Shown one piece after another: positions 2,416 to 49,322 of a stretch of DNA of 64,000 bases (positions within the stretch are counted from its first letter, which is position 1; every line of letters begins with the position of its first letter). The DNA is taken from NCBI GenBank assembly GCA_021300455.1, contig JAJTDP010000004.1, positions 2,438 through 66,437 of the forward strand, read 5' to 3'. The notes under the pieces are model-generated. The model saw only the letters and a program-made list of their open reading frames with translations. It was not told where the DNA came from and did not search any database. A program made the position numbers and the translations under genes. This DNA comes from Sediminibacterium sp. (lineage in GTDB: Bacteria > Bacteroidota > Bacteroidia > Chitinophagales > Chitinophagaceae).

Positions 2416-3120
2416 TTAATGGGTAAGTATTTTGAATATTTCTTCTAAACTGCCGCCATGTTTATCTAATAACTGACGGGTAGGCTCGTCTGCGACTAGT
2501 TTTCCTTGGTGTAATACTAACACTCGATCACAAATGGCCGTAACCTCTTGTAAAATATGTGTTGAAAATAAAATCATGCTGTCCTTACTTAGCGATTGAA
2601 TCAAGGCCCTAATTTCAATTAATTGATTCGGATCTAAACCCGCCGTGGGTTCATCTAATAAAATAAGTGTTGGCTGATGTATAATAGCAGCTGCAATACC
2701 TAATCTTTGTTTATATCCTTTTGACAAGGCTGCAATTTTTTTATTTTGCATTTGTCCTAGCCCTGTTTTTTCTATCACAGATTGAATCGCTTCAGCCGCA
2801 TTTGTGATTGAATGTACAGCTGTTAAAAACTGTAGGTATTCTTTCACATATAAGTCTTGATATAATGCATTTGATTCAGGCAAATAACCAATTTGTTTTT
2901 TTACAGTACTTGCGTTTTGATGGATGCGCTCACCATTTAAAACAATTGAACCCTTGTCGGCTTCTAAAAAACCAGCAAGCATTTTTAAAGTTGTAGATTT
3001 TCCAGCGCCATTGGGCCCTAAAAAACCTACAATTTCTCCAGGTTTTAATTCAAAGGAAGCTTCATTTACCGCCAATTGATGGCCGTAATTTTTACAAAGG
3101 GTATTTACTACTAATGACAT
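2416..3120 (-). CDS. gldA: ABC transporter ATP-binding protein, gliding-motility GldA-like
   Basis: Walker A GPNGAGKST, IGYLPESNALY, signature LSKGYKQRLG, LDEPTAGLDPNQLIEIR and C-terminal SLEEIF, typical of GldA. Confidence 0.75.
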   Translation of the reverse strand: MSLVVNTLCKNYGHQLAVNEASFELKPGEIVGFLGPNGAGKSTTLKMLAGFLEADKGSIVLNGERIHQNASTVKKQIGYLPESNALYQDLYVKEYLQFLTAVHSITNAAEAIQSVIEKTGLGQMQNKKIAALSKGYKQRLGIAAAIIHQPTLILLDEPTAGLDPNQLIEIRALIQSLSKDSMILFSTHILQEVTAICDRVLVLHQGKLVADEPTRQLLDKHGGSLEEIFKILTH

Positions 3121-3154
3121 AGTTCAAAACTACTTATATAAAATGATTTTACCA

Positions 3155-3406
3155 TTAGTCTATTTCAGAAGATGCCGCAGGCAAATGATCGTATTCTCCT
3201 TTACTAGCGTAGCTACCGAATATAAAAAACCCTACACAAATTGGTGTAAAAATTAATAATATAATAACCCACTGCAAAATAACATTCGATTGCAATGTAG
3301 CAGGGGCTTTTGAAATTTTATCGTATGCTTCATACACTAAAAAAAGAATAATACAGGGCGCTATCAGCATCCAAACATATCCTAATAATTTTTTTATCGT
3401 ATTCAT
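3155..3406 (-). CDS. Small two-TM membrane protein (DUF6814-like)
   Basis: 83 aa, two hydrophobic helices, ends GEYDHLP; lies downstream of the MFS gene on the same strand. Confidence 0.7.
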   Translation of the reverse strand: MNTIKKLLGYVWMLIAPCIILFLVYEAYDKISKAPATLQSNVILQWVIILLIFTPICVGFFIFGSYASKGEYDHLPAASSEID

Positions 3407-3441
3407 ATAATTATGTTTATTGTAATGAAAGACAGAATGCC

Positions 3442-5046
3442 TTAGTCCATTACATTTTTATCTATTTTATTCGTTAAATAAAGAAGGCCAATAATAAAAC
3501 ATACAGAAGCCACTCCAATTGGATACCATAAACCTGCTAAAGAATCGCCAGCAGGATTGGAAGAAGTTTTGGTAAACTCTACAATTAAAGTGCCTAAAAA
3601 AGGAACCAAGCCCCCAAAGACGCCATTACCTATATGATAAGGAAGTGACATAGATGTATATCTTATTTTAGTGGGGAACATTTCAACTAAGAAAGCAGCA
3701 ATAGGACCATACACCATCGTCACATAAACAATTTGAATAAAGACCAACCAAATCATATCCCAATAAGCCTCATTTCCCATCGTTTTCTCCACTACTAAAT
3801 GAGCATTAGGCGAACTATACCGAATCATATCAGGATTAATTAAAGTAATTGGCCTTGCTTCATCTCTTGGCGCTTTCAAAATAATGGTATCTGTTCTATA
3901 ATATTTAAAAACAGATCCATCAAAATAAGTAGTATCTGTTTGCTGCTTCAAATATATTTTCGTTTTATCCTTTGCATCATAAATTGGATAACTTGTCATA
4001 GTACTAGTAAGTCTTGTATCTACTATTTTAGTTCTATTCGCAGCAGAAGTAATATTTATAAATTCTTTGTAAATAGGTCTATAAGTAAGCACTGCGGCTA
4101 ACATACCAATTAACATAATCCATTTTCTGCCTACTTTATCACTTAACCAACCAAATAAAACAAAACAGGGGGTAGCCATTAAAATCGCCACCAACATGAT
4201 ATTTCTAGATTGTATAAAATCAATTTTACAGACTGTTTCAATAAAGCTTTGCGCATAAAATTGTCCTGTATACCAAACAACCCCTTGTCCCATTACGGCT
4301 CCAAACAATGCCAATAAAACCATTTTAAAATTGGCCTTCTTCCCAAAACTTTCTTTCAAAGGATTGGTTGAAGTTTTTCCTTCTGATTTTAATTTGGTAA
4401 ACATGGGTGATTCACTCATGCGCATTCTAATTAATACAGAAACGCCTACTAATAAAATGGATATCCAAAAAGGATATCTCCATCCACCCCACTCTGCACT
4501 AAAATTCTCCACCCCTTGATTCGTTCTTATCAATATAATAATACCTAATGCTAAAAATAAACCCAGCGTAGCCGTAGTTTGAATCCAACTTGTCCAAAAA
4601 CCTCTTTGACCTGCAGGCGCATGTTCTGCCACATAGGTAGCTGCTCCACCATATTCACCTCCCAAGGCCAAACCTTGTAATAAACGTAGTATTAATACCA
4701 AGATAGGCGCTGCCCATCCAATAGTAGCGAAACCTGGCACAAGTCCAATGGCAAAAGTGGAACCACCCATTATGATTAATGTCAGTAAAAATGTATGCTT
4801 CCTTCCAATTAAATCCCCTAGTCTTCCAAAGACCAAGGCGCCAAAAGGTCTTACAATAAAGCCTGCTGCAAAGATGGCCAAAGTGCTTAATAGTGCTGCT
4901 GTACCTGCATCTGCAGGAAAGAACTGCTTTGAAATGATGGTAGCTAACATTCCAAAAATGTAAAAATCATACCACTCAATTAAGGTGCCCACCGAAGAAG
5001 CGCCTATGACAAAAGCGATATTATTTTGTTTTATTTCTTGACTCAT
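3442..5046 (-). CDS. MFS transporter, metabolite:H+ symporter (MHS) family, with an extracytoplasmic insert (likely start MSQEIK at 5046)
   Basis: GTLIEWYDFYIF, RPFGALVFGRLGDLIGRK, RLLQGLALGGEYGGA, EMFPTKIRYTSMS motifs. Confidence 0.92.
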   Translation of the reverse strand: MSQEIKQNNIAFVIGASSVGTLIEWYDFYIFGMLATIISKQFFPADAGTAALLSTLAIFAAGFIVRPFGALVFGRLGDLIGRKHTFLLTLIIMGGSTFAIGLVPGFATIGWAAPILVLILRLLQGLALGGEYGGAATYVAEHAPAGQRGFWTSWIQTTATLGLFLALGIIILIRTNQGVENFSAEWGGWRYPFWISILLVGVSVLIRMRMSESPMFTKLKSEGKTSTNPLKESFGKKANFKMVLLALFGAVMGQGVVWYTGQFYAQSFIETVCKIDFIQSRNIMLVAILMATPCFVLFGWLSDKVGRKWIMLIGMLAAVLTYRPIYKEFINITSAANRTKIVDTRLTSTMTSYPIYDAKDKTKIYLKQQTDTTYFDGSVFKYYRTDTIILKAPRDEARPITLINPDMIRYSSPNAHLVVEKTMGNEAYWDMIWLVFIQIVYVTMVYGPIAAFLVEMFPTKIRYTSMSLPYHIGNGVFGGLVPFLGTLIVEFTKTSSNPAGDSLAGLWYPIGVASVCFIIGLLYLTNKIDKNVMD

Positions 5047-40558: not shown

Positions 40559-41446
40559 CTAGTGCACCAGTAGTTTTTCATGCAGCTTCGCATCGTATTC
40601 ATATCTCCATCTTCGATGACTCCATAAATAATTAGCCGGTTTCGCTTTAATTTTCTCTTCTAATATTTTTACGAATAAAGCAGTCAACTGTCCGTCTTTA
40701 AAGTTATTTGGAGAAGTAGTCATGACCTCATATTCGGAATGATAATACCCTCTTTTCACACGGTAAAAATGTACAAATACCTGGGCGGTATTATTTAAGA
40801 TAGCGCCCTTTTCTGGCCCTTTTACAAAAGGCGTTAGTCTTCCAAAAAAAGGCAACCAAAAGGCAGATAAAGGATTACCTGGATTTTGATCTGCGGCTAA
40901 GGCCATGGCATAACTACCTTGATTAGCATATTTATGAAACTGTGATTTAAAATTAGTAGCAGGAATCATAATGCTTCCAAAACGCTTTCTTAATTTTAAA
41001 ATAATTTTATTAAAATAGGGATTACTCAATGGCATATAAACTGCAATAAAAGGGTAATTGCTATATTTACCCACTCCCCAGTTCGCAAATTCCCAATTAA
41101 AAAAATGCCCTGCCATAATTTGAACTGACTGACCTGTTGCATGTAGCTTATTTAATACTTCTACATTAGAGGTAAATCTTTTGTCAAAATTTTTATCAGA
41201 AATAGAAATAAGCTTAAAAGTTTCAATAAAAGAATCGGTGAACTGCTGATAAAATTCATTGGCAATTTTCTGTCTTTCTTTTTCCGTTTTTTGAGGAAAG
41301 GCAATGGCTAAATTTTGTTGTACAATAGCGACTCTATATTTGAAAACATGTTGTAATAACAATGCAATAATATCACTGATAAAATAAAGCAGCCTCCAAG
41401 GCAGCAGAGAGATTAAATAAACAAAAATATAAATAAGTAAATACAT
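40559..41446 (-). CDS. Lipid A late acyltransferase (LpxL/HtrB family)
   Basis: QQNLAIAFP, GHFFNWE, AADQNP, PFFGRLT, NYLWSHRRW. Confidence 0.92.
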   Translation of the reverse strand: MYLLIYIFVYLISLLPWRLLYFISDIIALLLQHVFKYRVAIVQQNLAIAFPQKTEKERQKIANEFYQQFTDSFIETFKLISISDKNFDKRFTSNVEVLNKLHATGQSVQIMAGHFFNWEFANWGVGKYSNYPFIAVYMPLSNPYFNKIILKLRKRFGSIMIPATNFKSQFHKYANQGSYAMALAADQNPGNPLSAFWLPFFGRLTPFVKGPEKGAILNNTAQVFVHFYRVKRGYYHSEYEVMTTSPNNFKDGQLTALFVKILEEKIKAKPANYLWSHRRWRYEYDAKLHEKLLVH

Positions 41447-43473
41447 TAGTCTAGGTCTATCCAGGCATTATGTTCTTTTAAAAGAAGTATAAGTTCATCT
41501 ACTGCCACAGCGCTATCTATATTACGCTTCATCACTTCTTTTCCTTTGTATAAAGTGATCTTACCCACTCCACTTCCTACATAACCAAAATCGGCATCAG
41601 CCATTTCACCAGGTCCATTGACAATACAACCCATGATGGCAATTTTTAAACCTTTTAAATGACTGGTCACTGCTCTAATTTTTGCAGTGGTTTCTTGCAA
41701 TTCAAATAAGGTTCTACCACAGCTTGGGCAGGAGATATATTCTGTTTTTGAAATTCTGGTGCGCGTGGCTTGTAAAATGCCAAAAGCAGTTGAATTTAAA
41801 AACTGCTCCACCGAATTATTGCTATAATAATTTCTTCCAGAAACTTGTGCATGCTCATTACTAGCTTCCTTTTCACTAGCTGTCGCTTCTACTTGCTTAC
41901 CTTTTATGCCAATGCAAATACCATCTCCAAAACCATCTAATAAAAGCGCACCCGTCTCAGTAGCAAAATGAATTAAATGCTCATCTGTAGTTTGCCAAGC
42001 ACTATCTGTTACTAATATAACAGGAGATTTAATTTTTAATTCCATCATGCGCATCATCATTCTTCTTACAGCTGGCATAGCATGTGAAAGTGTACTACTT
42101 AAACAAAATACCACAGTAGGATCCTTCGCAATGGATAGTAGTTGCTCGTCTCTAATACCATTTTTACTTCCATAACAATCTACTTCTACAAAGTTGATGC
42201 TATCGCTTTTTTTAGTTGCTTGGAAATAAGTTTTAAAATTAAATAAGGGTAAATATTTTTGAGTATCGCTTGCTATCTCCCAAAGAGCAGGACTTGTTAT
42301 CACGCGTAATGTACCAGGTAAATCAAAAGACAATAATTCAGTAGGACTGTAAATAAAATCGGCAGCCGCATCGGTAATGGTCCACTTGTCTATGGCTTCA
42401 TCGTATATATATCCAATTGCCATTAAGTCAGCGGGTAATAATGCAATTTTATTTTTATAATCGGCCACCACCACTGGCACCGATTTACTTCCAATAGTGC
42501 TTACCTGAATTGTTTCTCTTCTTTTATATTCAAAAGGGCTATGAGGTAATTGTTCAATAGGCGGAATCATATCAGCCCCTTTAATTCTATTGGCTGGATA
42601 TCTTTTTACCAAATCTTTACAAACAGGAATTTCTAATTCTGGATCCTCGGTTAAACTCACTCTAATAGTATCTCCAATACCATCTTCTAATAAAGTCCCA
42701 ATACCAATGGCACTTTTAATTCTACCATCTTCCCCATCTCCTGCTTCAGTCACACCTAAGTGCAAAGGATAGCATTCATTGAATTCAGCTTGCATTTGTT
42801 GAATAAGTAATCGATAGGCTTGCACCATTACTTGCGGATTACTTGACTTCATACTTAAAATAATCTGATGATAGTCCAAGCTTCTTGCAATACGCAAAAA
42901 TTCCATCGCACTTTCTACCATACCAATGGCAGTATCACCATACCTACTCATAATACGGTCGCTTAAAGAACCATGATTGGTTCCAATACGCATAGCCGTT
43001 CCATGTTCTTTACAAATAAGTACTAAGGGGGTGAACCTTTCTCGTATACGCTCAATTTCTTCTATGTATTCTTGATCCGTATATTCAATTTGTTCAAATT
43101 TTTTCTTGTCTACATAATTACCCGGATTCACTCTCACTTTTTCAATAATAGTAGCTGCAATTTCTGCAGCATTCGGAGTGAAATGAATATCGGCGACAAT
43201 AGGAGTGGTATATCCTTTTTCTTTTAGCGAAGCTTTAATGGCTGCTAAATTTTCTGCCTCTGTTTTACTAGGGGCTGTAATTCTTACTAATTCCGCGCCA
43301 GCTTCAATACAACGAATCACTTGTTCCACTGTTTTTTCAGTGTCCATGGTGTCGGTAGTAGTCATGGTTTGCACCCTGATAGGATGCCCTCCACCAATGA
43401 TGAGATTACCCACTTTTACTTCGCGTGTAATTAAACGATTATAAGACGTAATAGAATTGCAATACTGTTCCAT
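41446..43473 (-). CDS. ispG: HMBPP synthase, long form with inserted domain
   Basis: RVQTMTTT, ADIHF, RIGTNHGSL, LHLGVTEAG, ISCPSCGRT, IMGCIVNGPGE. Confidence 0.97.
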   Translation of the reverse strand: MEQYCNSITSYNRLITREVKVGNLIIGGGHPIRVQTMTTTDTMDTEKTVEQVIRCIEAGAELVRITAPSKTEAENLAAIKASLKEKGYTTPIVADIHFTPNAAEIAATIIEKVRVNPGNYVDKKKFEQIEYTDQEYIEEIERIRERFTPLVLICKEHGTAMRIGTNHGSLSDRIMSRYGDTAIGMVESAMEFLRIARSLDYHQIILSMKSSNPQVMVQAYRLLIQQMQAEFNECYPLHLGVTEAGDGEDGRIKSAIGIGTLLEDGIGDTIRVSLTEDPELEIPVCKDLVKRYPANRIKGADMIPPIEQLPHSPFEYKRRETIQVSTIGSKSVPVVVADYKNKIALLPADLMAIGYIYDEAIDKWTITDAAADFIYSPTELLSFDLPGTLRVITSPALWEIASDTQKYLPLFNFKTYFQATKKSDSINFVEVDCYGSKNGIRDEQLLSIAKDPTVVFCLSSTLSHAMPAVRRMMMRMMELKIKSPVILVTDSAWQTTDEHLIHFATETGALLLDGFGDGICIGIKGKQVEATASEKEASNEHAQVSGRNYYSNNSVEQFLNSTAFGILQATRTRISKTEYISCPSCGRTLFELQETTAKIRAVTSHLKGLKIAIMGCIVNGPGEMADADFGYVGSGVGKITLYKGKEVMKRNIDSAVAVDELILLLKEHNAWIDLD

Positions 43474-43522: not shown

Positions 43523-44254
43523 TTAACGAAGCCCTTGCAGGAAGCCCTGCTGTAATAGTATTTTCTTTAAAAGGGCAACTGAATTGTTAGTGGCTGCTGC
43601 TGTTTTACTAGTGGTATGTAAAACAAAGAAGTAAATATGTGTGTTTTCTTCTTCATAGCCTATCACCCAAGTATTATTCGTAGTGGAGTCGGCAGCAGTG
43701 AGATAAGATAATTTATAGTTGCTATTCTCTTCTTTCAAGATCATCTTTTTGAAAACTTCTTGAGAACGTTTTTGAAAAGGCAATTCTTTGAAAAAGACTC
43801 TTTTGATTAAACCCAATTGTTCATCTGCAGTAATGGTAAGTGACCCATCTTTCCAAAATTCATTCATATTGGCACTTACTACACCCTTGCCATAACGAAT
43901 AGAATCAATTGTTTTTATAATGGTTTGTCTTCCAATTTGCGTAATAATGTTTTGATAATAAGGTGTAGAATCCATCGACGCCCAAGAGGCTTGGTTATGA
44001 TTGATAATACCTTTATCTAATGCGATTAAACTAGGTAGAATGAAAAAACTACTTAAAGGAGAAGAAGCGCTGTCTTTATAGTGAGACAAATTCGCAATGG
44101 TAAATTTACCCGATCCATTCTCTAATAAAGCAAAGCTACCCACCACCCCTGCGCTATCCAATATTTTTACAATAGAGGAATCAATGGTTACATTGTTCGG
44201 AGAACAAGCAAACAAGCTAGCAGACAATAAAACTGCAAAAATATATTTTTTCAT
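43523..44254 (-). CDS. Class D beta-lactamase-like lipoprotein with degenerate catalytic motifs (pseudoenzyme; likely start MKKYIF at 44254)
   Basis: Lipobox LFAC; PLSSFF in place of PASTFK, DSTPYYQ in place of SxVPYYQ, SYLTA in place of SYKTG. Scaffold motifs FW.DGSL.IT.DEQL, LPF and YFFVL are retained. Confidence 0.78.
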   Translation of the reverse strand: MKKYIFAVLLSASLFACSPNNVTIDSSIVKILDSAGVVGSFALLENGSGKFTIANLSHYKDSASSPLSSFFILPSLIALDKGIINHNQASWASMDSTPYYQNIITQIGRQTIIKTIDSIRYGKGVVSANMNEFWKDGSLTITADEQLGLIKRVFFKELPFQKRSQEVFKKMILKEENSNYKLSYLTAADSTTNNTWVIGYEEENTHIYFFVLHTTSKTAAATNNSVALLKKILLQQGFLQGLR

Positions 44255-44342: not shown

Positions 44343-45137
44343 TTATTCTATACCTAATAATTCTACTTCAAATATTAAAGTAGAGCCTGGTCCAATCATA
44401 GCACCTGCTTGACGATCACCATAGCCTAATTCAGCAGGGATGTATAATCTCCACTTACTTCCGATAGACATTAAAGGTAAAGACTCTTGCCATCCTTTAA
44501 TCACGCCATTTAATGGGAAGGTAATGGGCTCACCTCTTTGAACAGAACTATCAAAGATAGATCCATCAATTAAAGTGCCATGGTAATGACATCTTACTTT
44601 GTCTTTGATAGTAGGCTTAGTGGTGTCCTTACCTGCTATTAAAATTTCGTACTGAATACCGTTAGGTAAACTAACGACACCTGGTTTTTTAGCATTATTT
44701 ACTAAAAATTCTTTTCCTGCTAATTTGTTAGCGGCTGTTTTTTCTGCACTCATTGTTTCTTGATATGATTTAATACAATAATCTAATACACTATCGATGA
44801 TGATAGACTTTCCTTCAAAGCCGGCCAATAATCCTTTATTGAAAACGGCTAAATTTATTTTTTGTAAGCCTTGTCCATTTAAGCTCTGTGCAATTCTATA
44901 TCCTAATGCATAAGAAGCGCTGTCTTTAACATTTTTAATAACTAAAGGAGGTGTTACGCTCATGGTTAATTTTGCATTGCCCACTTTCAATGGCTTAACT
45001 GGTAGTGCTTTAACGCTTGTTGCCGGTTTCGCAGTAGTTACCGCTTTTGCTGCAGGACTAGCTGGCTTTGGATTGGTTTGCGCTTCTGCTAATTGCAATG
45101 TTGCAACGGCCATTAATACTAAAATTTGTTTTTTCAT
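44343..45137 (-). CDS. FKBP-type peptidyl-prolyl isomerase (FklB/FkpA-like) with Ala/Pro/Lys-rich N-terminus
   Basis: SYALG, VRCHYHGTLIDGSIFDSS, VIKGWQE, IPAELGYG, LIFEVELL. Confidence 0.95.
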   Translation of the reverse strand: MKKQILVLMAVATLQLAEAQTNPKPASPAAKAVTTAKPATSVKALPVKPLKVGNAKLTMSVTPPLVIKNVKDSASYALGYRIAQSLNGQGLQKINLAVFNKGLLAGFEGKSIIIDSVLDYCIKSYQETMSAEKTAANKLAGKEFLVNNAKKPGVVSLPNGIQYEILIAGKDTTKPTIKDKVRCHYHGTLIDGSIFDSSVQRGEPITFPLNGVIKGWQESLPLMSIGSKWRLYIPAELGYGDRQAGAMIGPGSTLIFEVELLGIE

Positions 45138-45242
45138 TATTCTCAATATACTTTTTTTAGAAGATAGATGCGGGAGCAAAAATACAATATGTATTTAATA
45201 ATTCGGTAATTTTGTGTTAAAATACAAATAAATTAAAATCTT

Positions 45243-45557
45243 ATGAAACTACTAATAACCACTAGCTTATTGATGGCATCTCTAGTTCTTTTATCATGTG
45301 GTGCCAACAATGATAAAACCAATACAGCTAGTGCAGATACCGCACAAATAGCCATTATGGATACAACTGCAGAAAAAACGTATGCAGTAAGTTTAGTGAA
45401 TAATAAAAAAGATCCTACTTGTGGCATGCCAGTAACTGCAGGTATTAGCGATACAGCACATTATGAAAAAAATATTTTAGGATTTTGTTCTGTAGAGTGT
45501 AAGAATGAATTTTTGAAAAATCCAAAAGCAAATTTAGCAGCAGCAGAAATTAAATAA
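45243..45557 (+). CDS. YHS-domain lipoprotein
   Basis: Lipobox LLSC; KDPTCGM...GFCSVECKNEFLKNP. Confidence 0.85.
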   Translation: MKLLITTSLLMASLVLLSCGANNDKTNTASADTAQIAIMDTTAEKTYAVSLVNNKKDPTCGMPVTAGISDTAHYEKNILGFCSVECKNEFLKNPKANLAAAEIK

Positions 45558-45560
45558 ACG

Positions 45561-48500
45561 TTAGCTGAATAAATAAGCAATATCATCCTTGGTTAAGGAT
45601 TTTACAAATCCTACTTCATCGGATATTAATTCTTTAGCCAAGGATCTTTTTCTCTCTTGTAATTTTAATATTTTATCCTCTACCGTATCATTACAAATCA
45701 TACGATACGCAAATATATTTTTGGTTTGTCCAATACGATGCGTTCTATCAATGGCTTGTTGTTCCACTGCAGGGTTCCACCAAGGATCTACTATATATAC
45801 ATAATCGGCAGCTGTTAAGTTTAAACCCACACCACCCGCTTTTAAAGAAATTAAGAACACTCTGCAATTATCATCGTTTTGGAAGCGCTCAATAGCGCGT
45901 TCTCTTTCTTGAATGGTACTACTACCATCAAAATACTCATGATCAATACCTAATTTTTTCAACTGTTCTTTAATTAAAGCAAGCATGCCTAAAAATTGCG
46001 AGAACACCAAGGCTTTGTGACCACCAATGTTTTCAGCTATTTCACGGGTTAACTCTTCTAATTTTACCGATTCATTTGGATAGGCTTCCTCTTTTAAAAT
46101 AGCCGGGCTATCACAAATTTGTCTCAACTTCATTAGCCCTTGTAAAATAGAAAGCTGTGATTTTTGAATACCCTTTTCTTCTACCATACCAATGAGTTTA
46201 TCACGGTAGTCGTTTCTATAAGCCTCGTAAATTTTTCTTTGTGCATCCCCCATTTCACAATACAATACCATTTCTTGCTTTTCTGGTAAGTCCTTGGCTA
46301 CTTGTTCCTTGGTTCTTCTTAATATAAAAGGGAATACAAATTTTCTTAAATGTTCTTTTTGTTCTTGCTCATCAAACTTATCAATAGGCATAGAGAAATT
46401 ATGCTTGAAGTATTCCACTGTACCCAACATACCTGGGTTCAAGAAATTCATCTGCGCATAAATATCAAAAGTATTATTTTGTAATGGCGTACCACTTAAA
46501 CATAATTTATTAGTGGCTTTTAATAAACAAGCTGCCTTGGTCACTTTGGAAGCCGGGTTTTTAATGGCCTGGCTTTCATCTAAGATCACATAATCAAAGT
46601 TCACTTCCACAAACATTTTAATATCACTTCTTAAAGTACCATAAGTGGTAATGATAACTTCAATTTTATCGTCATGAAATAAGGCTTTCTTTCTAGTGCC
46701 TCCATGATGTATATGATAAGTTAAAGAAGGGGTGAATTTTTTTAATTCATTCTGCCAGTTAAAAAGTAGCGTAGTTGGGCAAACCACCAAGGCTACTAAT
46801 TTGCCATTTTTTTCTTTTAAATGCTGTAGGAAAGACAAGGTTTGAATGGTTTTACCCAATCCCATATCATCGGCTAAAATTCCACCCCACTGTACATCGT
46901 GTAAATAATTCAACCACTGAAAACCACTAATTTGATAAGGCCTTAAAATAGGCATTAAATGGTCAGGTGGTGTAACGTCTGCAATGGCATAGCGTTCTCT
47001 AATTTTTTCATACTTCCCTTCTAATTGGAAAATAAGTTCTTCCTCGTCTCTTTGTTGGTAGAGTTCATCTAAAATAGAAAAATGATACTTGCTTAGTTTA
47101 AGTGTATCGGCCTTGCCCTCTCCTACTTTAAATAATAAAGAATATTTATTCAACCATTTTTCTGGAAGCACGCCTAAACTTCCATCTTTCAGTGGAACAA
47201 ATTGTTGTTTATTAGACAACATAGTTTTGATATCTTGAATAGATACTTTTTGTTCGCCGAAAGAAATTTCCACTTTCGCATCAAACCAATCGGTATTGCT
47301 ACTTATATATAAACGCGTAGAAGGCTTAGCTGTATTATACTTAAATTGTTTTAAGTATTCTGTTCCAAATAAAGGAATTTGTTTATCTCTTAAGGTATCA
47401 ATAAATAAGAAAAACCAATTGTTCTTTAATACCTCAGCGCCTTTTAAAGCAAGCACATTGCCTTCATTCGGACGAATAAAGCCAGAATGTAATTGCTCAA
47501 TGATATTCATTAATTGTCTTTCTGCTGCAAGGTCTCTTTCTAGTATGACAATTTTATCGCCTACTTGTTGAATCACAGAAGGACCATCTTCCTTAGTAAC
47601 AACAATATCTTTATAAGCAAATAAGGGTTCAAAGAATAAGTAGTCTCCGTTTTCTTTTAATAAAATTTGTAATTGAGGCTTCACCCCTTTTAATTTCTCC
47701 TGTGTAACATTATCTAATGAAACCTGATACTGCTTTGACAACGGCAATAAGGTGCTTTGCAAGTAATCGGGCCACTTGTCTAAATTAATTTCATGAAAGC
47801 CCGCTGGCATAAACTTTTCTACCCATAATAAATCATCTCTTTGCTTCCACACAAAAAACTGATGATGGTATTGGAATATATAATTAGACTTCGCGTGATT
47901 ATCTTCTAGTGGAATTTTGCCTTCTGGTAAACTTACATGTGCATATACAATGTATCTATCCTCTTCCTTTTCTACTCTAAAACTAGGCTGGATGGTGTTA
48001 AATACTAATTCCGCCTTCTGCATATTGGCCGTAGTAAAGGGTTTGTTATGCGGTAAATAAAAACTAAAAGGATGTTCTGATAAATCTCTCCAAACTTTTT
48101 CAATTTTAGGATGCAAGTATTCTTGCATTAATTCCTTGGTCTCATCAGGTAAGCTTTCTTCATCGGTATGCACAATATTATCCCATAAGCCTTGGAAAGG
48201 AGAATTTTTATTCAAGAACTTAGAAAGTTCTGCAGGTTGTAATTTTTTTACAAGTTGCAATAAAATTTTATCTTCTTCCTTAATTAAATTAGGGGTGATG
48301 AATTTAACAAGGTCAATTTTTTCTACTTTGCCTAAAAAAGAAGTGCCTTCTTCATTCACTTCCCCTTTGACTACATTGAAGGAAATATAAGGATAAATAG
48401 TAGGCTGGTGTTGCATCACAATACCAAAACGTTCTTTAATCACCGCCTCTTCATTAGAAGCTGGCTCCTGCTCTTCAATATCCCAATCGTTCGAGCTAGG

Positions 48501-49322
48501 CCTTTTGAGGGTAAGAGATTTGGTGCCGTTCACCTTTTGAATTTTTTCGTCTAATACTTTCAAAAATGGTTTGCCATCGTGATATATAAATTCAAACTTA
48601 TCTTCAATATAATCATCTAAAGTAAAGCCGTATAAAGCGAGTAATTTATTTTTCTCTCTATCCCAGTTACGAATGGTTTCAAAATAGTCTGCTCCCTTTA
48701 ATAAAAATAATTGTAGCAGTAACATGGTTTTATGCACGCAGAGCGGATATTCCGTCTCAGACAAACAATCGCAAGAGGTATCAAAAAAACGTTCTTCATT
48801 TTTTTGTATAATGACATGATAAGTTTTTCCTTTTTCATCAATTTCTGCAACTACCTTTTCATTTTCACTTTCGATAATATGAGGTCTCACCGATTTCAAA
48901 GTTTGTTCTGCTTTTTCGAATATAGCTTTTGAACAAAGCATTCGAATCATTTTTAAATCTAAGGTCTTTGTTCTTAATTGAGTATGCGTGGTCTTATAAG
49001 AAGCTGGCTTGTAGTCCAGTAAATTTTTATCCAATAAGTCTTGGATATAAAAAAGAGCAGCTGCTTTATGCCTACATACTTCTGATAAATTATAAGGACA
49101 GCCACAACGCAATGACAAAGTAGCGGCGCTTTTAAAATTTTCAATAGTGACTTTATAATAAGTACTGTAGCCATCATCTTTGACGCGGCAATGAATACTT
49201 CCAATTAAAGGATCAAATTTTGCTAATTCAATATTTTTGAGCGCAAAAATTTTCTTGCCTCTACGTATCACTTCTTCAGTGCCGTAGCTATAAATGTGTT
49301 TTACTAAATAGGGTAATGCCAT
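45561..49322 (-). CDS. SWI2/SNF2 ATPase with two N-terminal SWIM zinc fingers
   Basis: CGCPYNLSEVCRH and CDCLSETEYPLCVH; LRPYQ, ILADDMGLGKT, LDESQAIKN, LSGTPLQN, SLKAGGVGLNL, QAIDRTHRIGQ. Confidence 0.95.
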   Translation of the reverse strand: MALPYLVKHIYSYGTEEVIRRGKKIFALKNIELAKFDPLIGSIHCRVKDDGYSTYYKVTIENFKSAATLSLRCGCPYNLSEVCRHKAAALFYIQDLLDKNLLDYKPASYKTTHTQLRTKTLDLKMIRMLCSKAIFEKAEQTLKSVRPHIIESENEKVVAEIDEKGKTYHVIIQKNEERFFDTSCDCLSETEYPLCVHKTMLLLQLFLLKGADYFETIRNWDREKNKLLALYGFTLDDYIEDKFEFIYHDGKPFLKVLDEKIQKVNGTKSLTLKRPSSNDWDIEEQEPASNEEAVIKERFGIVMQHQPTIYPYISFNVVKGEVNEEGTSFLGKVEKIDLVKFITPNLIKEEDKILLQLVKKLQPAELSKFLNKNSPFQGLWDNIVHTDEESLPDETKELMQEYLHPKIEKVWRDLSEHPFSFYLPHNKPFTTANMQKAELVFNTIQPSFRVEKEEDRYIVYAHVSLPEGKIPLEDNHAKSNYIFQYHHQFFVWKQRDDLLWVEKFMPAGFHEINLDKWPDYLQSTLLPLSKQYQVSLDNVTQEKLKGVKPQLQILLKENGDYLFFEPLFAYKDIVVTKEDGPSVIQQVGDKIVILERDLAAERQLMNIIEQLHSGFIRPNEGNVLALKGAEVLKNNWFFLFIDTLRDKQIPLFGTEYLKQFKYNTAKPSTRLYISSNTDWFDAKVEISFGEQKVSIQDIKTMLSNKQQFVPLKDGSLGVLPEKWLNKYSLLFKVGEGKADTLKLSKYHFSILDELYQQRDEEELIFQLEGKYEKIRERYAIADVTPPDHLMPILRPYQISGFQWLNYLHDVQWGGILADDMGLGKTIQTLSFLQHLKEKNGKLVALVVCPTTLLFNWQNELKKFTPSLTYHIHHGGTRKKALFHDDKIEVIITTYGTLRSDIKMFVEVNFDYVILDESQAIKNPASKVTKAACLLKATNKLCLSGTPLQNNTFDIYAQMNFLNPGMLGTVEYFKHNFSMPIDKFDEQEQKEHLRKFVFPFILRRTKEQVAKDLPEKQEMVLYCEMGDAQRKIYEAYRNDYRDKLIGMVEEKGIQKSQLSILQGLMKLRQICDSPAILKEEAYPNESVKLEELTREIAENIGGHKALVFSQFLGMLALIKEQLKKLGIDHEYFDGSSTIQERERAIERFQNDDNCRVFLISLKAGGVGLNLTAADYVYIVDPWWNPAVEQQAIDRTHRIGQTKNIFAYRMICNDTVEDKILKLQERKRSLAKELISDEVGFVKSLTKDDIAYLFS

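Follow-up and report, generated by a model that had tools for sequence, protein, structure and literature searches.

Among the homologs of class D beta-lactamases, a few sequence clusters with impaired catalytic motifs have been judged unlikely to be active, namely cluster 14 of Spirochaetes (SxxH / SxH-Q / A-S/T-G), cluster 12 of Gammaproteobacteria and the singleton cluster 29 of Bacteroidetes, and received no follow-up of their evolution or function (Lupo et al., 2022; PMC9045261). The 'pseudo-DBL' proteins of Firmicutes (YbxI/BSU-1 and BAC-1) are likewise intrinsic class D homologs encoded on the chromosome, with little or no activity (PMC9045261). Here we examine a gene in a 64,000-nucleotide stretch of contig JAJTDP010000004.1 from Sediminibacterium sp. 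(assembly GCA_021300455.1), hereafter the window, which encodes a lipoprotein of 243 amino acids that has the class D fold and none of the three class D catalytic motifs. We propose, with a probability of roughly 0.6, that in a freshwater clade with small genomes a class D enzyme has been converted into a conserved, non-catalytic periplasmic lipoprotein with a binding or regulatory role.

Like the impaired clusters described previously, the family of the window protein consists of class D homologs that are conserved within a lineage and whose motifs are incompatible with beta-lactamase activity. In contrast to it, those clusters come from other phyla or comprise a single Bacteroidetes sequence, and they carry different substitutions; moreover, the window family has lost the serine as well, lacks a loop, and is accompanied by a documented canonical ancestor locus and by intermediates. 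The pseudo-DBL proteins differ in another respect, in that YbxI/BSU-1 and BAC-1 keep all three motifs, so that their weakness does not come from the loss of catalytic residues; two YbxI structures (5e2f and 6w5e) are among the structure-sequence matches of the window protein. The literature searched contained only the remarks on impaired homologs cited above (PMC9045261) and did not describe any class D pseudoenzyme family from Bacteroidota. Thus, the suggestion of a preliminary description of this region, that the protein might represent an undescribed pseudoenzyme family, stands with respect to this lineage, but impaired homologs as such have already been mentioned for other phyla.

The assignment to class D is supported by both sequence and structure comparisons, in which the similarity greatly exceeds what chance would produce. 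The window protein matches the NCBIfam model bla_class_D_main (NF012161) with an E-value of 1e-30 and 106.8 bits, which does not reach the cut-off of 250 bits, whereas canonical positional orthologs score 251.3, 251.0 and 244.4 bits on the same model; the match to the Pfam Transpeptidase model (17.7 bits) is under its cut-off, and Pfam alone is uninformative. By sequence, the nearest protein of known structure is Cpin_0907, a class D enzyme from Chitinophaga pinensis (7k3m/8ep6; E 2e-28). An AlphaFold2 (AF2) model built on 32 orthologs has a predicted local distance difference test score (pLDDT) of 80.6 and a predicted template modelling score (pTM) of 0.76, and when this model was compared with the PDB using Foldseek, the first match was again 7k3m, with a template modelling (TM) score of 0.78 and an E-value of 1e-17, and the best 50 matches were all class D beta-lactamases (OXA-type enzymes and their relatives). 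The model and its structural neighbors thus bear out the class D, penicillin-binding-protein-like alpha-beta fold that had initially been supposed. The Chitinophagaceae class D lipoproteins exemplified by Cpin_0907 are the closest counterparts of the window protein, with which they share this fold and 43 scaffold positions and, taken as a group, the same CSPNNV motif and the same locus upstream of ispG. The differences are that in the window protein STFK, SxV, KTG and the carboxylate-binding arginine are all replaced, that about 21-27 residues are deleted, and that it scores about 107 bits against about 251.

The BlaR1/MecR1 sensors similarly use a class D fold for a job other than antibiotic destruction. 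BlaR1 retains SxxK, undergoes acylation by beta-lactams and carries a membrane zinc-protease domain as its fusion partner, whereas the window protein is a stand-alone lipoprotein of 243 amino acids without the protease domain, without the lysine and without a conserved serine. On the NCBIfam blaR1 model it obtains 78.7 bits over its C-terminal half, against a cut-off of 400 bits. A BlaR1-type sensor is ruled out, given that only a signal peptide precedes the fold, with no M56 zinc-protease domain, and that SxxK is absent.

The gene is an uninterrupted open reading frame (ORF) that runs from an ATG at 44254 to a TAA at 43523-43525; a plus-strand reading of the interval is ruled out, since that strand is closed by stop codons. 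The preliminary description had presented it as an intact lipoprotein ORF of 243 amino acids with replaced catalytic motifs at numbered positions; the ORF is indeed real and unbroken, on the minus strand, and the residue numbers are exact when the protein is aligned with 7k3m/8ep6. The N-terminus is a signal peptide ending in a lipobox cysteine, as in bacterial lipoproteins, and lipidation of the protein is predicted. The motif that follows this cysteine, CSPNNV, also occurs in canonical class D enzymes of Chitinophagaceae. More generally, S/T-P-N-N-V after the lipobox cysteine is common to the dead and the canonical Chitinophagaceae class D lipoproteins (the window and loci L086-L125); it might serve as a signal, specific to this lineage, for the sorting or tethering of lipoproteins.

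None of the motifs S-x-x-K, S-x-V and K-T/S-G that define class D enzymes is present. In the alignment with 7k3m/8ep6, PASTFK corresponds to PLSSFF, SAV-P-Y-F-Q to DST-P-Y-Y-Q, and YKTG to YLTA, which bears out the earlier readings of SxV as DST and of KTG as LTA. Motif 1 is followed by a segment that is shortened, as had been noticed: 23 residues separate F71 from D95, compared with 44-50 between K73 and S118 in canonical relatives. An alignment with OXA-163 picks up again at H86, which places the missing stretch just before this residue, and in the AF2 model residues 82-96 form no more than a short loop. A further class D signature, Y-G-N together with the omega-loop tryptophan, is retained in part, with Y-G kept, Asn replaced by Lys in most family members, and W134 invariant. 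The omega-loop tryptophan supports the carboxylated lysine in active class D enzymes; in the window family this partner lysine is gone. The structural motifs listed in the preliminary description (PYYQ, YG, FW.DGSL.IT.DEQL, LPF, YFFVL and the terminal GF..G.R) are all found in the protein. The loss of catalytic residues is, however, wider than had been stated, in that the canonical arginine at position 225, which aligns with the carboxylate-binding arginine of OXA enzymes, is absent as well and the leucine after W134 is replaced by lysine or arginine. The claim that the nucleophile Ser68 had been kept is correct for the window protein, in which position 68 is a serine with the codon AGT, one transition from AAT, but it does not describe a trait of the family.

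The extent to which these replacements are fixed becomes clear from the relatives. A word-indexed search retrieved 399 relatives at E < 1e-5, the best 120 of which are 56-96% identical to the window protein and all about 245 amino acids long; the column counts refer to these 120 and the window protein. At the former nucleophile (column 68), Asn is found in 63 and Ser in 44 of the 121 sequences. The new residues at the other sites are nearly invariant: Phe at column 71 (118/121), Asp at 95 (119/121), Ser at 96 (120/121), Lys at 123 (115/121) and Asp at 189 (117/121), so that the substituted residues F71, D95, S96, K123 and D189 are each conserved in 115-120 members, while Trp134 is present in all 121 and the first column of motif 3 is Ile, Leu, Val or Met in every member. 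Among 32 diverse orthologs, the lipobox cysteine and 54 further positions are invariant. When 32 family members were compared with 24 canonical relatives, 43 positions were found to be conserved and identical in both groups, and these make up the scaffold (YG, W134, ITxDEQLG, EENxHxYFFV and GFxxG). Only four positions are conserved in each group but with different residues (family|canonical: L67|A, F71|K, D95|S and I172|M). Conserved in the canonical group alone are the valine of SxV, the leucine after the omega-loop tryptophan, the Thr-Gly of KTG and Arg225. With Lys73 replaced by Phe, Ser118 by Asp, Lys208 by Leu or Ile, and the carboxylate-binding Arg by Asn or Ser, and with either Asn or Ser at the nucleophile position, all the residues on which class D enzymes depend for acylation, deacylation and the binding of the beta-lactam carboxylate are gone. 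It can be predicted from these substitutions that the window protein is neither acylated by beta-lactams nor able to hydrolyse them.

The loss of catalysis has not been followed by loss of constraint. When each GTDB species was represented by a single genome, orthologs were found to be encoded in 313 species genomes; the fetched carriers are recorded as freshwater metagenome-assembled genomes (MAGs) of Sediminibacterium, Chitinophagaceae or Bacteroidota. Every fetched ortholog aligns over its full length in one piece, at identities down to about 55%, and there are no internal stops among the listed genome matches. The ratio of nonsynonymous to synonymous substitution rates (dN/dS), calculated by the pairwise, not tree-based, method of Nei and Gojobori for pairs with dS of 0.05-1.5, is 0.112 for the pseudoenzyme gene, compared with 0.065 for ispG, 0.072 for the lpx acyltransferase gene and 0.197 for the FKBP gene, all encoded next to it; thus, the protein is under purifying selection comparable to that on its housekeeping neighbors. 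The amino-acid divergence relative to ispG is 1.80-fold for the dead family and 1.58-fold for the canonical orthologs. In a maximum-likelihood tree, the family of the window protein forms one clade with a Shimodaira-Hasegawa-like approximate likelihood ratio test (SH-aLRT) support of 100. The clade sits on a long stem of 0.69 substitutions per site, and the branches within it are short. The genome of the window (1.71 Mb, 92% complete) encodes a single class D homolog, as does each of 15 further clade members with genomes of 1.5-2.5 Mb; no active paralog was found, and none of these 15 genomes has a match above the NCBIfam cut-off. These results agree with the earlier supposition that the protein is maintained by selection in spite of its lost motifs, whether one considers the dN/dS value, the lack of stops among the listed matches, the retention in 313 species genomes or the lack of an active paralog, and the protein is accordingly a pseudoenzyme in the operational sense of having lost its catalytic residues while remaining under purifying selection. 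A decaying pseudogene is ruled out by the dN/dS, by the absence of stops among the listed matches and by the retention of the gene in reduced genomes.

With respect to what such a protein might do, the conserved replacements suggest a possible mechanism. Phe71 probably fills the hydrophobic pocket of the former carboxylated lysine, beside Trp134, and would stabilise the fold without CO2. In OXA structures, the segment that is deleted here forms one wall of the active site, and the deletion should therefore open the former cleft. D95, S96, K123, K/R135 and D189, all nearly invariant, may then constitute a new polar working surface on the opened groove. Anchored in the membrane and facing the periplasm, the protein could hold an envelope ligand or a partner protein. 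The roles put forward in the preliminary description, namely the binding of peptidoglycan or peptides, a scaffold or a decoy, would be conceivable candidates. The idea of a binding protein is modelled on EnvC and NlpD, catalytically dead LytM factors that regulate cell-wall enzymes by binding. Like the window protein, these are envelope proteins derived from the fold of a cell-wall-active enzyme with the catalytic residues lost, and NlpD is also a lipoprotein; however, they are related to the window protein neither in fold nor in sequence, so that the likeness is an analogy of mechanism only.

The origin of the family can be traced through its locus. A profile of the family detects a class D homolog in 197 of the 201 sampled Chitinophagaceae genomes, including 179 of the 180 of high quality. 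The class D gene and ispG are both listed in 118 genomes, on one contig in 83 and within 6 kb of each other in 67; 64 of the 83 show the two genes in the same orientation, with ispG downstream of the class D gene. Among the 20 class D genes at such ispG loci that were read, 14 are canonical (PASTFK; S-x-V, with one S-C-P; K-T/S-G), and one of these, in a member of the same genus with a 4.3 Mb genome, is the immediate upstream neighbor of ispG. Given the shared ispG locus, and given that the canonical proteins at this locus reach or just miss the NCBIfam cut-off, we identify the window gene as a positional ortholog, its counterpart in Chitinophagaceae being the intrinsic class D beta-lactamase lipoprotein that is encoded on the chromosome.

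Within the genus, several stages of the transition appear to have been preserved. The matches to the family profile in 121 genomes fall into three tiers, the dead family (44 genomes), an intermediate tier (27 genomes) and canonical long-loop proteins (43 genomes), for which the median genome sizes, taken from genomes at least 90% complete, are 2.1, 2.6 and 3.6 Mb, respectively, a contrast that is descriptive only because the genomes are phylogenetically non-independent and essentially represent one clade. We read the FKBP/ispG loci of 18 intermediate-tier and two long-loop canonical members. In five of these loci (L106, L107, L109, L118 and L119) all motifs are intact and the loop is already reduced to 34-36 residues. 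Such short-loop enzymes indicate that the shortening of the loop took place, at least in part, before catalysis was lost. In two others the general-base lysine alone has been lost (PASSFN in L110, and PASTFE with KTG kept in L117), and in L115 and L116 (PASTFE) and L112 (PAGTFN) motifs 2-3 or the serine have been altered in addition. Further-decayed forms include PAATFN with AET and YTDG, and PFHSFEP with YHSS; STAD was also seen. The loci with partial loss (L108, L110-L112, L114-L117 and L120-L123), which come from other species of the genus, all contain intact ORFs at the FKBP/ispG locus, with the gene at about 2900-3900. At these loci the dead state of a class D protein has been approached independently along several routes, with the loss of Lys73 as the recurrent first step. 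Parsimony requires 12 changes between the canonical and the dead state, at least three of which are forced by well-supported branches. An exhaustive search of 1.84 billion proteins showed that SxxK is absent from 57 of the 113 full-length nearest representative clusters (P0122-P0270); 43 of these 57 have a lipobox, often followed by C-x-x-N-N-V. Degenerate class D-like lipoproteins look widespread.

These repeated losses with intact ORFs, at least three of them forced, together with the several independent losses of Lys73 in the genus, the absence of SxxK from about half of the nearest clusters and the near-universal presence of the class D homolog in Chitinophagaceae, mostly at the ispG locus, also fit an alternative in which an old second function was simply continued: the intrinsic lipoprotein might already have had a catalysis-independent housekeeping function in the envelope, and the beta-lactamase activity would have been an add-on that was repeatedly shed under low antibiotic pressure. 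This explanation overlaps with the conversion of an enzyme into a binding protein that we favor, and differs from it only in the time at which the function arose. We consider it unlikely as stated, because the long stem, the large deletion and the four differently conserved positions suggest remodelling over mere continuation; furthermore, near-universal intrinsic beta-lactamases would be expected in soil bacteria for the sake of resistance alone.

A more radical remodelling, in which the protein has become a new enzyme that hydrolyses or transfers another envelope substrate at a new catalytic site (for instance Ser96 with Lys123 or with Asp95/Asp189), would account for the long stem followed by strong constraint, which suits a change of function, and for a dN/dS as low as that of enzymes; D95, S96, K123 and D189, conserved at 95-99%, also lie at or beside former active-site positions. 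However, this conservation fits a binding role equally well, the residues that bind the substrate carboxylate and those of the canonical site are all gone, and we know of no serine hydrolase with a nucleophile at the 'x' of SxV, so that such an enzyme would match no recognised serine-hydrolase geometry; a new catalytic activity therefore seems improbable to us. That the gene is a slowly decaying relic, kept only for DNA signals that serve the expression of ispG, is very hard to credit, for even though it has lost all catalytic residues and is separated from the downstream ispG by just 49 bp that contain no terminator, its dN/dS of 0.11 testifies to constraint at the level of the protein, no stop occurs among the listed matches, the fetched orthologs are full-length across 313 species, the lipobox cysteine and 54 other positions are invariant in 32 orthologs, and the gene is kept in genomes of 1.5-2.5 Mb.

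The conversion into a non-catalytic binding or regulatory lipoprotein also has to be set against the genomic context (Table 1). Each of the 80 fetched loci, as far as its flanks are available, has the order FKBP - pseudoenzyme gene - ispG - lpx, and no terminator-like sites were detected between these four genes in the window. A scan for sigma-70 promoters gave 26 sites versus 21.2 in shuffled sequences, no excess, with a consensus from which Bacteroidota promoters differ. This operon-like setting, which brings together a secreted FKBP chaperone, the supply of isoprenoid precursors through ispG and a lipid A acyltransferase family gene, lends weak backing to a role in the envelope. Other considerations weigh against the proposed function. 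The synteny with FKBP, ispG and lpx may be no more than an inheritance; most other Chitinophagaceae have two ORFs, of ~340-370 and ~215 amino acids, between the class D gene and ispG; and the family profile finds nothing in G287, G288 and G322, genomes of the genus with a completeness of at least 90%, so that outright loss of the gene also occurs and the gene is not strictly essential. The adjacency of the class D gene to ispG is ancestral to Chitinophagaceae and older than the catalytic loss, and adjacency to FKBP occurs only within the genus. A functional link to FKBP, ispG or lpx was considered and is not separable from inherited synteny.

Several further features of these loci were observed. 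The two intervening ORFs of the other Chitinophagaceae can be guessed, from their N-termini alone, to encode a putative VWA/BatA-like membrane protein and a putative TPR protein. In the window, the region upstream of the FKBP gene contains an ORF for a putative lipoprotein of 104 amino acids with a Cys-rich C-terminal half (CGMPV...CSVEC) at 45243-45557 on the plus strand, and a helicase-like ORF of 1253 amino acids at 45561-49322 on the minus strand. Arginine-biosynthesis genes take this place in members of the family that are more distant.

Table 1. Positions of the pseudoenzyme gene, its parts and its neighbors in the window, and of loci from other Chitinophagaceae (own locus coordinates)
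Feature	Position	Strand	Remarks
Gene for dead class D beta-lactamase-fold lipoprotein, 243 aa (P0001)	43523..44254	minus	Stop included
Signal peptide and lipobox, residues 1-17 (MKKYIFAVLLSASLFAC17)	44204..44254	minus	C17 invariant in 32 diverse orthologs
S-P-N-N-V, residues 18-22, right after the lipobox Cys	44189-44203	minus	P19, N20, N21 and V22 at least 90% conserved in 32 diverse orthologs
Relic of motif 1, P66-L-S-S-F-F71 for P-A-S-T-F-K	44042..44059	minus	From alignment; L67 versus A, F71 versus K
Deletion site between motifs 1 and 2 (between N85 and H86)	43997..44002	minus	About 21-27 residues (loop/helix) missing; approximate
Relic of motif 2, D95-S96-T97 for S-x-V	43964..43972	minus	D95 and S96 nearly invariant
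Y121-G122-K123 (canonical Y-G-N)	43886..43894	minus	Lys in 115/121 family members
W134, omega-loop Trp	43853..43855	minus	Invariant; next residue Lys/Arg, canonical Leu
Relic of motif 3, L185-T-A187 for K-T-G, then family-specific D189	43688..43702	minus	
Upstream neighbor: secreted FKBP-type peptidyl-prolyl isomerase	44343..45179	minus	88 bp before the gene; FKBP_N and FKBP_C in orthologous loci
Downstream neighbor: ispG (GcpE, 4-hydroxy-3-methylbut-2-enyl diphosphate (HMBPP) synthase)	41446..43473	minus	49 bp past the stop
Lipid A biosynthesis acyltransferase family gene (lpx)	40559..41446	minus	Start overlaps the ispG stop
Loci with two intervening ORFs	L097 2291-4026; L101 2158-3815; L095 4770-6397		

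The present analysis provides a well-supported natural case in which a beta-lactamase has become a non-enzyme that is conserved. Lake metagenomes contain the family in abundance, a single cluster represents 340 member sequences, and JGI records label its members 'beta-lactamase class D' (P0002, P0018, P0023 and others). Because of this naming and this abundance, homology-based surveys of the freshwater resistome can miscount the family as a resistance gene, which it almost certainly is not.

Furthermore, with the canonical ancestor and intermediates found at one locus in one genus, the order in which the changes took place and the fitness rationale of giving up catalysis can be put to a direct test. 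Together with the lack of SxxK in about half of the nearest representative clusters, the family points to a role for the class D fold in the envelope of Bacteroidota. Tentatively, and with some doubt, we suggest as a possible extension that the class D lipoprotein of the ispG locus has in general a catalysis-free housekeeping function in the envelope, of which the freshwater clade would present the pure form, a novel kind of regulator or receptor in the periplasm that uses the beta-lactamase fold and has a remodelled, open cleft. If this is true, the series found within a single genus, from the short loop through the loss of Lys73 to full replacement of the catalytic residues, would record how a resistance enzyme becomes a binding protein.

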